A stretch of 46,228 nt of DNA, from contig CADBOX010000011.1 in assembly GCA_902796415.1 (NCBI GenBank), positions 1 through 46,228 on the forward strand, read 5' to 3'. Source of the DNA: an uncultured Lachnospiraceae bacterium (GTDB lineage: Bacteria > Bacillota > Clostridia > Lachnospirales > Lachnospiraceae). Positions 12,446 to 46,228 of the stretch are shown piece after piece; position 1 is the first letter of the stretch; the number at the start of each line of letters is the position of its first letter. A program made the translations under genes and the position numbers. The notes beneath the pieces are model-generated. The model was not told the DNA's origin. It made no database searches and worked only from the letters and a program-made list of their open reading frames with translations.

Positions 12446-13522
12446 ATGACTAAGATTGATATCATATCCGGTTTTCTTGGGGCCGGTAAGACAACTTTGA
12501 TTAAAAAGCTCATCGAAGAGGCTTTTATGGATGAGCAGGTGGTGCTGATTGAGAATGAATTTGGAGAGATCGGAATCGACAGTGGATTCCTCAAAGAATC
12601 CGGCATCCAGATTAATGAGATGAACTCCGGCTGTATCTGTTGCTCTCTGGTGGGAGATTTCAAGACAGCTTTAGGGGAAGTATTGGATCAGTTTCACCCG
12701 GATCGTATCGTCATTGAACCTTCAGGTGTAGGGAAACTCTCCGATGTCATGAGTGCTGTTGGAAATGTGGTTTCTGATGATGTGGTACTTAACTCCCACA
12801 TCGCGGTATCCGATGCCAAACGTGCCAAGACCTATATCAAAAACTTTGGTGAATTTTATAAAAACCAGATTGAATATGCCAGTGCCATCATCTTATCCAG
12901 GACACAGGACATGAAGGAAGACAAGCTGGAGAAAACCATCGAATTACTTCGCAACCTGAATGACAGATCTCCGATTGTTACAACTCCCTGGGATCAGCTT
13001 ACCGGAAAACAACTGCTGGAAGTCATCGAGGGGAAGAACTCCTTTGAAGAGGAAATGATTGCCGCAGCTCAGGCTGCAGCTGAAGCTCATGCGAAAGAGC
13101 ATGAGGAAGAGCACGAGCATCATCACCACCATGACCATGAGGAAGAGCACGAGCACCATCACCACCATGACCATGAGGAAGAGCACGAGCATCATCACCA
13201 TCACGACCATGGACATGGCCATCATCACCACCATCATGCGGAAGATATCTTCAGTGAGTGGGGCAAAGAGTCGCCCAAGAAATTCACAAAAGAGAAGATC
13301 GAGAATATCCTTGCTCAACTGTCAGAAGAAGATTCCACAGAATATGGTACCATTCTCCGCGCAAAAGGAATCATTCCTTCCGAAGATGGCAGATGGTTTC
13401 ATTTTGACCTGGTTCCGGGGGAGACGGAAGTGCGTTATGGCAGTCCGGATTATACTGGAAGGATCTGTGTCATCGGTGCTGATCTGAAGGAAGATAAATT
13501 AGCAGAATTATTTGGTTTATAA
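12446..13522 (+). CDS. CobW/COG0523 G3E metallochaperone GTPase with His-rich insert
   Basis: GFLGAGKTT, ENEFG, GCICC, IEPSG motifs, CobW_C-like RAKG region and His/Glu tract. Start at ATG 12446 after AAAGGG. Confidence 0.92.
   Translation: MTKIDIISGFLGAGKTTLIKKLIEEAFMDEQVVLIENEFGEIGIDSGFLKESGIQINEMNSGCICCSLVGDFKTALGEVLDQFHPDRIVIEPSGVGKLSDVMSAVGNVVSDDVVLNSHIAVSDAKRAKTYIKNFGEFYKNQIEYASAIILSRTQDMKEDKLEKTIELLRNLNDRSPIVTTPWDQLTGKQLLEVIEGKNSFEEEMIAAAQAAAEAHAKEHEEEHEHHHHHDHEEEHEHHHHHDHEEEHEHHHHHDHGHGHHHHHHAEDIFSEWGKESPKKFTKEKIENILAQLSEEDSTEYGTILRAKGIIPSEDGRWFHFDLVPGETEVRYGSPDYTGRICVIGADLKEDKLAELFGL
13100..13207 (+). repeat. Three 36-bp tandem repeats encoding HEEEHEHHHHHD
   Basis: Units at 13100, 13136 and 13172 differ only at synonymous CAT/CAC positions. 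Confidence 0.95.
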
Positions 13523-38909: not shown

Positions 38910-41900
38910 ATGGAAAGAGAGGTTAAGTATATGCATCGTACATGGAAGAAGATCCTTGCATTCACGATGGCGGCGGTTCTTCTGTTGGGCAGCAGTAATC
39001 TGTCCTGGACCACAGAATCCGCTTATGCTTCCCAGGTGCAGGATCAGCAGGATGAACTTACCTCAGATAAAACGGTCAGAAAGACTGACGGACATGCCAC
39101 GGAGAAAGAACCGGAAGACAGAAGCAATGAAGATAGCACAGAAGAGAGTACGAAAGAATCCTTGTCAGAAGGAGATAAATCAGAAGAGAACTCATCAGAA
39201 GAAGAAACTGACAGAGAGGACTTTTCTGAAAAAGAACATGAACAAGGGGATTCCTCTGAAGAAAAACTTCCTGAAGAGATATCTTCTGAACAGAAACCTA
39301 CCGAGGAGAAATCACAGGAAGATACTTCGACCCATGAGCCTTCCAATGGGCCATCGCCGGAAGAAGCAAGCCCGGAAGATAAGATTCTTGAAGATGAAGA
39401 GAATTATACGCTCTTATCTACAACCGGACCACATGACGTAGATATGCCGGATGTCACCAGCCATTATTTCAACCTTCAGAAGAGCAGCACAAAGGTCAGT
39501 TCCGCTTCCGGAACATACCTTAAGGTGGTAAGTAATGTCAACGAAGCTTCCAGGTTTATTTCCACCGAGATGACAGATGGTGCACTCTACAGTTTTACCC
39601 CTCGAAAAACTTCCTCAACCACAGTAACCGTAGGCGGCGGGACCGGGGGAGGCATCTCTTTAACCGCAGTGGCAGGAACCAGCAGAGACCGTTTTGGAGA
39701 TGTATTCGATGCTGTGAACGCAGGTCGCATCAGCAGTAAGGTGTTCAATTTGTCCAAGTGCTCCAGCAATCCTTATGCCCTATATACGAATGTAGGTACC
39801 TGGTATGATGCATCCACCAGAAAAACCTATTCTGTGGATATGAAGATGGAGGTGACTGGGTATCTGTTCCCTTCCGAGAAGATTCGGGATCAGTTGTATA
39901 ACAAATATACGGCACCTTATGTAGGATTCAACAGCAACATGATTGGAATCACCGTCATGGGGACGGATTATGTACAGACTGGCTTCACTTTCTATTATCA
40001 TGGAACAAACACTGAGATATCCAACCTGCATGGTGTGATTCAATTCTGTGATGTGGACGCACAGCAAGGTGTGGATTTTGGAAGCGGTTTTCAGAAGATT
40101 ATTATGTTCAACACCTCCGGATCTCACTTGCAGTATAATCCTTCGGGAATCATGAGTGGCAGTCACGGATATGTCTCCAGCCGGACGGTGGAAAATGTGA
40201 AATCAGGAGATGCCAATACCACAGTCCTGGGAGTATTCACCGGATCCAGAGCATCCTGCCGTTGGACGATAGCCAAATGTGATCACAAAGATACCGGCGG
40301 ATCTGCTTCCCATGGAGTGTCTTCCGGATTCGGAATCCCGGCCGACAGCAAGCTAGCCGATGCCATCTCTTATTACAAAAGCAACAGTACCGGATTCCTG
40401 GGTATCTATGCAGACCTGGGTCTGATTACTCTCCCTCCCAGGATTGACAAGAATGAATACAGTGGAAAGGTAGACTCTTCCAAATCTTCCATCAATCAGA
40501 AAGAAATGAGTCTGACTGACAGGGAAGAAGAGATGACCTTTGTACTGACCTGTGCAGCGGCATCCCCATCCGATATTGGGAAAGCCCAATATACCACTTA
40601 TAACATAACAGATACATTAGAAGCTGCATTCTCACTGAAAGAAGATGGGGTGAAGGTATATACAGAAAAGTCAGTCGAAGACTCAGTAAATACCTACTCA
40701 GATGTGACCGGACAATTCTCCGTCAGCGTCAGTGATCAGGCAGACCATCGAACCAAGATTACGGTGGGGGCCAAAGCAGATTCCCTGAACACTGCATCAT
40801 TCTATGGGAGAACTTATTACGTTCATATACCGGTAAGGATTCGGACTGAGGAAGAACTGGCAACCTATGGGCTGTCCCTTTCCGATTGGTATCAGAAAGA
40901 TGAATCCCTCGGGAAAGCGGTTGGAAGCAGTCAAAGTTATCGAGGCCTTATCGCCATCGGAAATAACTCCCAACTTTATGTAGTCTCCAATCAAGGCACT
41001 TCGAATATTTTGACCAGCCCTACTACCGGAGTCCGGATTCCCATGCGTGTCCTGATCCGTAAATTCGGAGATGACAAAGATGCGCCGGTTAAAGGGGTGA
41101 CCTTCGCTTTATATGGCGGGGAACCAGGGGAAAATCGAGAAGGAAAAACTCCTTTGATGACAGCCGTGACAGACGAGGAAGGTTATGCATGGTTTGAGCC
41201 GAAGACCGGGACCTTTTTTAACGCTTCCTATGGAGACGGACCATATTATATCGCAGAACTTTCTGTGCCGGATCAATATAAAGATATATGGAGTCCTTCT
41301 GTTGACCCTGATTGGAACTACGTGATTGAGAAGCTCCCTGATCTCTCCCTTCTGGAGAAAAGGGAAGAAATGATCACGAAAATCATAACAAAGGATGAGG
41401 CGAATCTGGGTCACATCCTATGGAACCATGAGAAAGAGAACGAGAAAAACTCTGTGAGAGCTTATAAGAAGAGCACTGATACCGGAGAATTCCTGGGAGG
41501 AGCCCAGTTCATACTTTACGAATGGTCCGAGAGAAAAGGAGAATACATCGAGTTGATGCCTCTTACCGAAGGGAAGGACGAGAAAGGAGATATCTATTAT
41601 AGCAATGCTGTTTCTTTCCGTAACTCGATGGATAATCTAGGCAGATATAAGGTGTTGGAAACCAAGGCACCTGCTGGTTGCCTTCTGGCTAAAGACGCCT
41701 GGGAATTCACCATGGGAGAGAAGACGGAAAAGGTTGTCCACACCTTTGATAATGCTTTGCAGAAGGTGGCTCTGGAGATCCTGAAAAAAGGAGAAGACGG
41801 GAAACTCCTTCCTGAAGTTATCTTTCAGATAAAGGCTGCGGAAGACATCTATGCTCCATGGGCATCGGAAGATTCCGAGGATAAGAGCAGCTCCCTCCTG

Positions 41901-43853
41901 GTATCCAAGGGCACTGTGGTTGATACCATCACTACAGATGGGGAAGGAGTTGCAAGAAGTACAGACGGCCATGAACTGTACGTGGGTGAGTATCTGGTGG
42001 AAGAGATTCAAGGAGCAGAAGACTATGTAATGAATACTGAGCCACATAGAATCAGTCTGGAGTATTCATCCGAGATTAAGGAACCGGTTATCCAGCATCA
42101 GATTACCCTTAGCAACCCCAGGATGCAGCCTGCCATGGCTGTGGCAAAACTTGCCGACCACACAGTAAACCCTGTTGGTGAAAATGTGAAATTCAATCAG
42201 ACCACCGGTCGTTACGAAGAAGAAAAAGTGGACGGTATGTATAATAGCGAAGAAACAGTAGATTTTACTATCACTGTGACCAACACCGGAAATGTGGATC
42301 TGCTTGATCTTAAGCTGGAAGATTCCATGGATGAGATTAGTGAAGAGCAAGGATACAGCCTGAAGGAATTCGTGCAGGAGGAGGCTTCCTTTTTCCAGAT
42401 ACCTAAAGAGGGATATTATGTGTCTGATAAAGGAAACAAGGTAACTGTTTCTTATGAGGAAGGTAATCCAATGAATCTTATAATGGACTGTCTTGCGGTA
42501 CAGGATTCCGTAAAAGTTCATTTTCTCACAAAAGTAAAAGAAGACGCAGCAAATGTATATCATCTGAAGAACGATGTGAAACTGACTGCAAGATACCAGA
42601 CAGTACAAGGGAATAATGTGGAAAAGAAGTTAAAGGATGTTCCCACGGAAGATTTATTGGATGAAGATGGAAATTCCCTGACAGAAGACTGGGATCACAT
42701 CAATATCCCCGGTAAACCGGCCGCGAAAGTTGCAAAGATTGCAGATAAGACTACAGGAGCTGTTTTGAAAGATGGTCGCTATGAGGGAACGAAGACGGAA
42801 GGCCTTTACGAATATGGGGAAAATGTAGATTTCACTCTGACTGTAACCAATTCCGGTACAGCGGAACTATACCAGATTCTTGTGAAGGACACACCGGATA
42901 CTGAATTGTACGAATCCCTGGAAAGCGGATCCATTCAGTTCGAAGCGGGAACATTTATCACAGCACAAGGACGTGAAGTACATGCTGTGACGAAAGAACA
43001 GGAAGAAGAAAGAAGCTACGGCCTCTTGTTAGATACTTTATCTGCAGGGGACAGTGTAGAACTCCATCTCACAGGGAAGGTAAAGTCAGGTGCCAAAGCA
43101 GCCACTTCCCTCAGAAACCATGTTGTGATATCCGCCGAATACCAGGCAAGAATAGACAGCTTTATCTCTGTTCCACATACTCCGGAGATGGAAGACGAAG
43201 ATACCATCGGAATCGCAACTCCAATCCTGGTCATCGCCAAACTCGCTGACAAAACCACAGGAGCCACTTTAAAAAAAGGAAGATACACAGGAACCAAGAA
43301 ACCCGGTACCTACCAGGCAGGAGATAGCGTAATCTTCAGCTTAAACATCACAAATAAAGGAAAAGGAAAAGCCAAGGAGCTTGAAATCACCGAGCGCCCA
43401 TCCGGAAAACTGATTCAATACGTAAAACCGGTAGGATACCAGGCAAAAGAAGGGGACACTCTCACTACATCCAAAGGGAATACCGTTGAAGTAAAAAGTG
43501 CCTCTTCAGATAAGATTACATTAGATAAGCTCCTGCCCGGTGACTCTGTGGAGATACACTATGAATGCAAAGTGAAACAGCAGATAAAAACTATCCGGAA
43601 CCTGAAAAACCAGGCGAGGGTAACCGGAAAGAACCCGGACGGCAGCAAGATACCTGACACACCGGAGATGAAAGACGAAGACACCATTCATCTGAAAAAA
43701 GTTTCACCTCCATCTTCCAAGTTGCCGACCTATCCCTCCTCTTACCCGAAAACCGGGGATAGCAGTAATACAACAGCAAACCTGGCTATAGCAGGTATGG
43801 CTTTGCTGGGAATCCTGTATTCTGTCCGCAGACGGAGGAGACATATCTCTTAA
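38910..43853 (+). CDS. Sortase-anchored multi-domain adhesin with SpaA/CnaB-like and DUF11-like Ig repeats
   Basis: Signal peptide, acidic linker, E-box-like YKVLETKAPAG and YLVEEIQGAEDY, three FTxTVTNxG repeats, YPKTG sorting motif, hydrophobic helix and RRRRR tail. Start 38910 or 38931. Confidence 0.88.
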   Translation: MEREVKYMHRTWKKILAFTMAAVLLLGSSNLSWTTESAYASQVQDQQDELTSDKTVRKTDGHATEKEPEDRSNEDSTEESTKESLSEGDKSEENSSEEETDREDFSEKEHEQGDSSEEKLPEEISSEQKPTEEKSQEDTSTHEPSNGPSPEEASPEDKILEDEENYTLLSTTGPHDVDMPDVTSHYFNLQKSSTKVSSASGTYLKVVSNVNEASRFISTEMTDGALYSFTPRKTSSTTVTVGGGTGGGISLTAVAGTSRDRFGDVFDAVNAGRISSKVFNLSKCSSNPYALYTNVGTWYDASTRKTYSVDMKMEVTGYLFPSEKIRDQLYNKYTAPYVGFNSNMIGITVMGTDYVQTGFTFYYHGTNTEISNLHGVIQFCDVDAQQGVDFGSGFQKIIMFNTSGSHLQYNPSGIMSGSHGYVSSRTVENVKSGDANTTVLGVFTGSRASCRWTIAKCDHKDTGGSASHGVSSGFGIPADSKLADAISYYKSNSTGFLGIYADLGLITLPPRIDKNEYSGKVDSSKSSINQKEMSLTDREEEMTFVLTCAAASPSDIGKAQYTTYNITDTLEAAFSLKEDGVKVYTEKSVEDSVNTYSDVTGQFSVSVSDQADHRTKITVGAKADSLNTASFYGRTYYVHIPVRIRTEEELATYGLSLSDWYQKDESLGKAVGSSQSYRGLIAIGNNSQLYVVSNQGTSNILTSPTTGVRIPMRVLIRKFGDDKDAPVKGVTFALYGGEPGENREGKTPLMTAVTDEEGYAWFEPKTGTFFNASYGDGPYYIAELSVPDQYKDIWSPSVDPDWNYVIEKLPDLSLLEKREEMITKIITKDEANLGHILWNHEKENEKNSVRAYKKSTDTGEFLGGAQFILYEWSERKGEYIELMPLTEGKDEKGDIYYSNAVSFRNSMDNLGRYKVLETKAPAGCLLAKDAWEFTMGEKTEKVVHTFDNALQKVALEILKKGEDGKLLPEVIFQIKAAEDIYAPWASEDSEDKSSSLLVSKGTVVDTITTDGEGVARSTDGHELYVGEYLVEEIQGAEDYVMNTEPHRISLEYSSEIKEPVIQHQITLSNPRMQPAMAVAKLADHTVNPVGENVKFNQTTGRYEEEKVDGMYNSEETVDFTITVTNTGNVDLLDLKLEDSMDEISEEQGYSLKEFVQEEASFFQIPKEGYYVSDKGNKVTVSYEEGNPMNLIMDCLAVQDSVKVHFLTKVKEDAANVYHLKNDVKLTARYQTVQGNNVEKKLKDVPTEDLLDEDGNSLTEDWDHINIPGKPAAKVAKIADKTTGAVLKDGRYEGTKTEGLYEYGENVDFTLTVTNSGTAELYQILVKDTPDTELYESLESGSIQFEAGTFITAQGREVHAVTKEQEEERSYGLLLDTLSAGDSVELHLTGKVKSGAKAATSLRNHVVISAEYQARIDSFISVPHTPEMEDEDTIGIATPILVIAKLADKTTGATLKKGRYTGTKKPGTYQAGDSVIFSLNITNKGKGKAKELEITERPSGKLIQYVKPVGYQAKEGDTLTTSKGNTVEVKSASSDKITLDKLLPGDSVEIHYECKVKQQIKTIRNLKNQARVTGKNPDGSKIPDTPEMKDEDTIHLKKVSPPSSKLPTYPSSYPKTGDSSNTTANLAIAGMALLGILYSVRRRRRHIS

Positions 43854-44116: not shown

Positions 44117-44126
44117 TGTTTGGTAT

Positions 44127-44200
44127 CGAGGCGTGGCTCAGTTTGGTAGAGCGCTGCGTTCGGGACGCAGAGGCCGTGGGTTCGAGTCCCGTCGCCTCGA
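44127..44200 (+). tRNA. tRNA-Pro (anticodon CGG), CCA not encoded
   Basis: Acceptor stem CGAGGCG/CGCCTCG, D-arm GCTCAGTTTGGTAGAGC, anticodon arm CTGCG-TTCGGGA-CGCAG, T-loop TTCGAGT. Confidence 0.97.
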
Positions 44201-44210
44201 TTCGGGTTAA

Positions 44211-44255
44211 TCCTGGGAGTGGCTTTAATAGCCACTCCTGGGGTTTTGTTTTTTT
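44211..44255 (+). terminator. Terminator after the tRNA
   Basis: GGAGTGGCT-TTAAT-AGCCACTCC followed by a T tract. Confidence 0.8.
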
Positions 44256-44263
44256 CCAGGCAG

Positions 44264-44303
44264 CTTGAGTCAAGTCAAAATCGACTTGACGACTTGACTC
44301 AAG
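44264..44303. repeat. 13-bp inverted repeat built from GACTTGAC units; putative integrase arm-type sites
   Basis: CTTGAGTCAAGTC (44264-44276) / GACTTGACTCAAG (44291-44303), plus an extra GACTTGAC at 44283-44290. Confidence 0.65.
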
Positions 44304-45551: not shown

Positions 45552-45750
45552 GTGTTCGAAATCCTTTCTATAGATTTCTAAACAATATGGAAAGATTATC
45601 GAATCATACTTTTTCAAGAGAGAATATAGTATTACCAGAGAATGGAAACCAGAAAAATGAAAAACGAAAATGTCATCATATTATGCTTGTAAGTAATCAG
45701 TATTATAAGGAGATGACATCGTAGAAGAATGTATTATCAGAAATTGTTGG

Positions 45751-46016
45751 CATACCTTTTTGGTAATCGTTCCCTCTCAATCAATAGAATTGAGGCACGA
45801 TGGCTTACGTGGTTAAGTATGAGTAACCCGTTGGATTAGATAATCGCAGTTGTGATATACCTGCAGGAAATGACAAATATCACACCGTTCTTTTCCCAAA
45901 CGGTAGTGGATTATGGGATAAGAATTGCTGTGTAAGCACAGCTAAGGGCTCCGACTGGAAGACAGGGAGTATATTTTGCCGGAAAACCGGCTAACGAACT
46001 GAAGCAACTGTTTTTT
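45751..46016 (+). ncRNA. Candidate structured non-coding RNA, family not recognised
   Basis: At least six hairpins or helices, G-U pairs that work on the + strand, a loop-to-downstream complementarity (pseudoknot candidate) and a terminal T6 tract; no long ORF. Confidence 0.5.
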
Positions 46017-46041
46017 AAAATTTGTCACTATTATCTTTGTG

Positions 46042-46084
46042 TTGCCATAGAGGGGAAGGACATGGGACTTCCCCTCTATGGCAA
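46042..46084. repeat. Perfect 17-bp inverted repeat
   Basis: TTGCCATAGAGGGGAAG-N9-CTTCCCCTCTATGGCAA. Confidence 0.9.
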
Positions 46085-46132
46085 TCACCTTTTAAATACG
46101 TTTTTTGTGACTAATCTGATGGAGGTGGTGAA

Positions 46133-46228
46133 ATGTCACGTAACCTGAGGCAACAGGCCAGAGGAATCATCTTTGCCGCATTTCGCGAAAACCTGGATAA
46201 ACGTGCTATGAAAGCAGATGGAAAGGGG
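46133..46228 (+). CDS. Partial ORF running off the right edge; possible N-terminus of a second tyrosine recombinase
   Basis: Strong SD GGAGGTG at 46121-46127; MSRNLRQQARGIIFAAFRENLDKRAMKADGKG. The family guess is from recollection of similar N-termini and rests on only 32 aa. Confidence 0.55.
   Translation, partial: MSRNLRQQARGIIFAAFRENLDKRAMKADGKG

Follow-up and report, generated by a model that had tools for sequence, protein, structure and literature searches.

A compact fold of two hairpins and a pseudoknot, found next to genes for a tyrosine-recombinase-fold protein (P0001), lies at the 3' end of the window, by which we mean the whole 46,228-nt stretch analysed, the entire contig C11 of genome G000. 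Our preferred reading, drawn by analogy with known systems and held tentatively at somewhat less than even confidence, is that this conserved fold may be a small RNA that serves as cofactor to a predicted relaxase, and that this enzyme would mobilise the tRNA-Pro island and related small plasmids. What is supported directly is that core, U-tract, inverted repeat and gene follow one another in this order, that the module covaries and that unrelated replicons carry it. An earlier note had proposed a structured RNA of ~270 nt upstream of a recombinase-like ORF. On the RNA, a conserved single-strand structure on the + strand ending in a U-tract was found, with conservation limited to the 3' ~70 nt; on the ORF, the tyrosine-recombinase fold and its tie to a conserved structure stood, with a relaxase more likely than a recombinase.

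Table 1. Features of the window's 3' end, with coordinates in the 46,228-nt stretch.
Feature	Coordinates	Strand	Remarks
tRNA-Pro(CGG)	44126..44201	+	Inferred left attachment site of the element
Tyrosine integrase P0002	44313..45617	-	PF00589, E 1.8e-18; divergent from the structured region
Lineage-specific 5' hairpin array	45751..45944	+	Hairpins 45851-84 and 45927-42 are robust
Distal strand complementary to 46004-11	45846..45853	+	May replace the family's pseudoknot partner
Hairpin A	45948..45970	+	5-bp lower stem, 2-nt GA bulge (45953-54), 3-bp upper stem
Hairpin B	45978..45991	+	Directly 5' of the conserved purine-rich strand
Conserved 12-nt purine-rich single strand	45992..46003	+	
3' pairing strand and T6 tract	46004..46016	+	Pseudoknot partner in relatives
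Perfect 17-bp inverted repeat	46042..46084	.	Outer half-sites conserved in the family; missed by the earlier note
P0001, 5' end	46133..46228	+	290 aa, complete in near-identical copies; predicted TcpM/MpsA-type (MOB_M-like) relaxase

Reading away from the tRNA-Pro gene, the window holds the integrase gene on the - strand, the structured stretch, the inverted repeat and an ORF from 46133 that is cut by the contig end (Table 1). Integrase and adjoining tRNA, two of the features looked for in an integrative mobilisable element, are both present at the 3' end; a search for the right attachment site or right end of the tRNA-Pro element did not find it. The integrase, whose true start is probably near 45553, was confined among the loci searched to copies of the window's element, which has a GC content of 39-42% against 45% for the genome. 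When 201 related genomes were searched at the DNA level a single real copy of the region was recovered, in G023, and this copy and metagenome locus L013 are 99.8% identical to the window over 45601-46135. Both run on into the complete 290-aa gene, beyond which lie a 364-aa protein on the opposite strand (L007:4672-5766 and L013:2731-3825, both -) and a serine resolvase. The 364-aa protein is without a Pfam match, gives a weak Atlas lead to Phage_CRI replication proteins (31% of one cluster) and has Rep_trans-like motifs by eye; it is the probable replication initiator of the element. Past the resolvase (L007:6740-6788) the two copies part ways, and the G023 tail, which resembles unrelated coding sequence, may be a mis-join at the contig end.

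The predicted structure of P0001 (pLDDT 88.7) is a tyrosine-recombinase fold, with XerA, XerH and lambda Int as its best matches at a TM of about 0.4, and the protein combines the R-K-H-R-H-Y set with core-binding and catalytic folds, as members of the tyrosine recombinase superfamily do. Across 126 relatives R160, K180, R242 and Y285 are invariant and H239 and H273 nearly so; the family extends to 331 clusters at E up to 1e-10. With profile A2, pCW3 TcpM reached 63.5 bits (composition bias 14.8) in an alignment that runs through the C-terminal helices and the catalytic tyrosine; the only controls, four ordinary recombinases, reached 26-48 bits. An hhalign comparison gave E 2.5e-5, and no NCBIfam TcpM model was among the matches. 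PF12835 (Integrase_1) is matched by 48 of the 126 members and PF12834 by 13, and Atlas look-alikes of P0001 include clusters with both domains. We take MpsA and MpsB to be members of the PF12835 and PF12834 families. P0001 has a core-binding SAM-like N-domain, a domain described as absent from the three known relaxases of the MOB_M type (PMC8152469). P0001 is more likely a TcpM/MpsA-type relaxase than a recombinase and, by analogy, is likely a fused MpsB-MpsA-type relaxase.

Upstream of these genes a recurrent order is seen, of variable hairpins, hairpin A, an AU-rich linker, hairpin B, the purine-rich strand, the pairing strand, a T-tract and the inverted repeat, with the motif ~140-240 nt before the start codon and always on the gene's strand. 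In the window the conserved core is 45948-46016 (+), comprising the GA-bulged hairpin, the second hairpin, the 12-nt purine-rich strand and the U-tract. Hairpin A was parsed in 10 loci at anchors picked by eye, with a parser that required such a stem; all 10 keep at least 4 of the 5 lower-stem pairs with differing sequences, 9 have GA as the bulge, and a C-G pair follows in every one. The hairpin A loop is complementary to the strand 3' of the purine-rich motif, giving a pseudoknot, and this pairing is matched to lineage (mean score 15.1 versus 10.6 for mismatched combinations, permutation p 3.5e-5, 9 lineages, with L018 dropped as kin of L016 and stems chosen without using the pseudoknot). 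Two further loci, L035 and L038, show by eye the same loop-tail pairing with compensating changes and no GA bulge. When the long-range helix was tested without constraints, significance was not reached (combined p 0.12, 20 loci); an unconstrained hairpin test was weak (p 0.046) and no single helix was significant alone. Within lineages 98.9% of cells pair in alignment A4 (174/176; 4 rows) and 96.4% in A3 (of 768; 16 rows), against 29-48% in slid-register controls. Across these alignments 16 pairs vary through G-U and only 3 by double changes, a pattern that favours the + strand and is thin as covariation. In a more distant subfamily (L080-L083) a conserved structured region of its own lies ~100-350 nt ahead of the gene and contains long invariant stretches; covariance model R2 found no match in L080, L081 or L083.

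Whether the window belongs to this motif family was addressed with the same model R2, which holds 12 sequences, none from the window, although its alignment was fitted to an earlier model, R1, that included the window, a small leak. In genome G000 (2.7 Mb) the top-ranked R2 site is 45948-46022 (+), with 29.4 bits and E 2.5e-4, and the next site scores 15.9 bits (150 of 862 candidates scored); among 18 more distant loci R2 missed 17, including L055 and L010, which parse at hand-chosen anchors. Of 27 upstream regions, 7 matched a descriptor of the full core where it was expected and 2 matched it elsewhere, with 0-3 of 30 shuffles matching; this descriptor finds the core once in the 420 nt upstream, and a tighter version hit 2 sites genome-wide, one of them the window site, both descriptors having been tuned with knowledge of the window. 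A sequence-only leave-one-out HMM ranked the window site 6th (E 6.3). The window is a deviant member, its hairpin A loop measuring 5 nt against 14-21 nt in the other eight lineages tested and pairing only weakly with the U-tract (score 8, the weakest of 9 lineages). Its 3' strand is instead complementary to 45846-53, the long-range pair of the earlier note, and this segment may have taken over as pseudoknot partner. The likeness seen in plasmids of Clostridium and Bacillus, which takes in the hairpin, short motif, T-tract and repeat, was recognised by inspection. No fold is evident upstream of the repeat in locus L072, and directly upstream of the L074 repeat lie genes that are presumably those of an insertion sequence.

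The complementarities listed in the earlier note exist where it placed them, but not all coexist in the ensemble of the 266-nt region. Hairpins 45851-84, 45927-42, 45948-70 and 45978-91 form with a mean pair probability of 0.93-1.0, while the outer stem 45766-801 reaches only 0.2 and helices 45840-45/45909-14 and 45884-904 are disfavoured at about 0; the long pair 45846-53/46004-11 is real (6 Watson-Crick and 2 G-U pairs) but has a probability of 0.06 in this pseudoknot-free model, and the T6 tract sits at 46011-16 as described. Conservation does not extend to the 5' 200 nt, which is lineage-specific; blastn and nhmmer searches of 45751-46016 against 62 loci matched only copies of the element. 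In a low-depth strain contig (run X4) the changed window bases all keep the stems. Against shuffles the + strand gave z -2.0 (8 of 200 as good) and the - strand z -3.8, so the energy signal by itself is modest and gives no preference for the + strand. The region matched no Rfam family at its gathering score, in agreement with the earlier note, nor was there a match at the same position in 20 related loci. Sub-threshold Rfam matches were set aside as miRNA and snoRNA noise, and hammerhead, HDV-like, pistol, T-box and RNase P layouts are, by eye, a poor fit.

The inverted repeat at 46042-46084 is the predicted binding and nicking site (oriT core) of the downstream protein. From T-tract to repeat core the distance is 35 nt in the window and 29-41 nt in 11 of 12 loci; the T-tract is absent from L033 and L055. 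Complementarity between the core region and the repeat was not lineage-matched (p 0.225, 12 loci, the repeat being the sole target tried), and a guide role there is therefore unsupported. No covarying guide segment of the bridge type was seen for the repeat in the same test.

Homologues of P0001 were found in 49 further metagenome loci, 1 further GTDB contig, 2 of 400 family genomes and 10 of 400 class genomes, and in 16 plasmid records, all from Clostridium and all typed as non-mobilisable. An order-wide search with profile A1 returned 0 of 401, phage records and viral contigs held no homologue, and 120 matches to the inverted-repeat pattern in viral contigs had no adjoining family gene, two weak generic matches apart. 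Carriers include 3-5 kb circles in which the partners are RepL, Rep3, Prim-Pol or Rep_OBD proteins; terminal repeats were present in 8 of 14 small contigs checked, and no HUH-relaxase motif was seen in any of the 6 circles checked. Between L051 (RepL) and L060 (Rep3) only the upstream region and the P0001-type gene are common, at 81-90% identity, so the module appears to move independently of its replicon and of the window's integrase, which fits mobilisation. Given a TcpM-like protein family and unrelated Rep partners, the module is probably for mobilisation. Two carriers have no recognisable Rep beside the P0001-type gene, L064 (NZ_CP143540, a complete 3387-bp plasmid) and L220 (G090:C67, a 5191-bp circle with a terminal repeat); in both, the P0001-type gene is the sole recognisable DNA-processing gene and 1-1.6 kb is without long ORFs. 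These are possibly Rep-less replicons, or the P0001-type protein may initiate replication. The recombinase-fold gene of L060 seems split across contig ends or frames. L026 is a larger element with the module and an MmeI-like restriction-modification gene, and carries two SpF66 sRNA matches above gathering score (L026:900-1115 and 12497-12722).

The closest precedent is SGI1, for which the available parts of PMC9299015 and PMC6414798 describe a same-strand RNA, essential for transfer, with a ~280-nt core between oriT and mpsA. This sgm-sRNA works in trans; supplying MpsAB in trans does not make up for it, and PMC9299015 suggests that it binds transfer-complex proteins. As far as those sources extend (PMC9299015, PMC6414798), both systems have a tyrosine-recombinase-type mobilisation protein in an integrated element and, just upstream, a same-strand structured non-coding stretch (~280 nt) whose end lies near an inverted repeat, not far from the start codon; the window fold has this strand, position and 3' end. 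The likeness drawn here is one of position and layout. Unlike SGI1, the catalytic and core-binding domains are here in one protein, the hosts are Bacillota, many carriers are 3-5 kb plasmids, and the fold precedes the presumed oriT repeat; in SGI1 the order is the opposite, the mapped oriT lying upstream of the sgm-sRNA core.

In pCW3 (PMC6137059) and pIGRK (PMC8152469) oriT is described, in the sections available, as lying just upstream of the recombinase-type relaxase gene and containing inverted repeats, a repeat-rich intergenic arrangement shared by our module; the A2 match through the catalytic tyrosine adds a likeness to pCW3 TcpM, and six bases in a row are common to the motif consensus and the TcpK box, which sits at the 5' end of the pCW3 oriT (PMC6137059, in part). 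These accessible portions mention no RNA or pseudoknot, and model R1, in which the hairpin B pairs were mis-registered, found nothing on pCW3 at E up to 5. The section of PMC8152469 on these proteins describes TcpM, MobK and MpsA as without a core-binding domain, MpsA borrowing MpsB; P0001 differs from TcpM and MobK in having one. The plasmid elements ARRPOF, GEBRO and PAGEV (PMC5737381, in part) are similar as structured elements of 223-349 nt whose RNA or ssDNA nature is open; our fold differs in being tied to a relaxase-like gene rather than to a replicon, and in having no Rfam match. The IS110 bridge RNA, in the part of 10.64898/2026.10.21.760802 available, is likewise a structured RNA upstream of a recombinase-type gene; it differs in the fold of its protein, and our fold has no lineage-matched complementarity to the inverted repeat. 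A 2026 survey (10.64898/2026.01.13.699239) called the MOB_M class the commonest chromosomal relaxase of the species it focused on; the CONJscan profile for this class has a cut-off score of 84. For RNA beside such genes our literature search returned only sgm-sRNA, the candidate catalogues of Weinberg 2017, Fremin 2021 and COMPASS being outside the comparison. The fold is new to Rfam, and the kind of system has one precedent, SGI1 sgm-sRNA, which lacks a defined, testable structure.

Taken together, the oriT position in pCW3 and pIGRK and the sgm-sRNA of SGI1 lead us to read the repeat as the predicted nicking site, P0001 as a likely relaxase and the core as a likely RNA cofactor. A promoter upstream of about 45750 would make a transcript ending at the U-tract, P0001 would bind and nick the inverted repeat as origin of transfer, and the folded core would bind the relaxase or the helper's coupling protein; the RNA could thereby help deliver the relaxosome to a borrowed conjugation system, as has been proposed, not proven, for sgm-sRNA. 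A sigma-70 promoter search gave nothing that stood out. Runs X1, X3, X4 and X5 (two RNA-labelled, two possibly RNA) yielded contigs of depth 2-4 over integrase and region alike, as DNA carry-over would give, and six RNA runs from the same sample or study contained almost none of the region's words, which is uninformative either way.

Fold comparison and covariation cannot separate RNA from ssDNA, as argued in the available part of PMC5737381, and the same fold might instead form in single-stranded DNA as part of oriT, serving on the transferred strand as a signal for priming or for a coupling protein; the purine-rich strand would then be a TcpK-box-like protein site and the T-tract a bending or melting element at fixed distance. 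We regard this as unlikely, though it deserves serious consideration: the near-constant spacing of T-tract and repeat is a DNA-like constraint, the six bases in common with the TcpK box fit it (PMC6137059, in part), the RNA runs are without enrichment over the region, and in the portion of PMC8152469 available tyrosine-recombinase relaxases are argued to leave no 3'-OH and to need single-strand origins. However, TcpK boxes are tandem dsDNA repeats and the window motif is single-copy. RNA is also the more typical setting for a pseudoknot, for frequent G-U variation and for a U-tract that immediately follows the last helix. The strand and distance of the motif relative to the start codon, a U-tract directly 3' of a helix-forming strand and, in several lineages, an SD-like sequence with a short non-conserved ORF at the 5' end would suit a cis-acting 5' leader of the gene, either an attenuator or an autoregulatory switch bound by protein, in which the U-tract would be a conditional terminator. 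Such a leader is improbable, as no classic GC hairpin directly precedes the U-tract on the + strand, the inverted repeat lies between fold and start codon, and L033 and L055 have no T-tract.

A complete recombinase catalytic set with a core-binding domain, and the want of a recognisable Rep in L064 and L220, would also be explained if P0001 worked on the inverted repeat as resolvase or initiator of replication, with the RNA being a plasmid-maintenance RNA, of which Rcd at ColE1 cer is an example, or a primer. We consider this slightly more improbable still, as an unrelated Rep of their own is present in most carriers, a serine resolvase is already encoded by the window's element and by L063, and the conserved outer half-sites stand much further apart than the 6-8 bp of a recombinase core. 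That the hairpins arose by chance in a GC-richer intergenic stretch is a very remote prospect overall: the modest + strand z, the single helices not significant alone and the low HMM rank speak for it, but the leave-window-out covariance model, the permutation test and the positional conservation largely refute it for the 3' core, leaving the 5' 200 nt as the place where it could apply.

Should the RNA cofactor reading be right, it bears on the open question of the way in which relaxases of the tyrosine-recombinase type initiate transfer and gain access to an unrelated secretion system; sgm-sRNA is the only RNA known to be necessary for such transfer, and its mechanism is not known. A bolder generalisation, which we think rather unlikely, is that ribonucleoprotein relaxases are widespread in Bacillota, a fused tyrosine-recombinase relaxase being paired with a compact pseudoknotted RNA that would prime at the nick or serve as adaptor to foreign conjugation systems. 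If true, such a particle would meet the problems of the class, no free 3'-OH after nicking and no cognate coupling protein, and sgm-sRNA would turn from oddity into rule. Small gut plasmids now typed as non-mobilisable would be reclassified. A covarying core of 70-100 nt on 3-kb two-gene plasmids (Rep and a P0001-type gene) offers a minimal system for testing directly, one by one, whether RNA or ssDNA is involved, whether action is in cis or in trans, and the role of the pseudoknot.

Several observations concern the surroundings of the tRNA-Pro gene. Between it and the integrase end lie a terminator-like hairpin (window 44209-44245) and a perfect 13-bp inverted repeat with a 14-nt spacer (44264-44303), possible integrase arm or accessory sites. 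In genome G017 a 2.1-kb insert without integrase occupies the same tRNA-Pro (L219, G017:C69:9346-11561), flanked by a 45-bp repeat of the tRNA-Pro 3' end 2.1 kb downstream of the tRNA, and its gene pair is presumably a Phd/Doc-like toxin-antitoxin. Upstream of the tRNA the window encodes an LPXTG surface protein of 1647 aa with SpaA and DUF11 repeats (38910-43853), and genes related to it precede the tRNA in G023 and G020.
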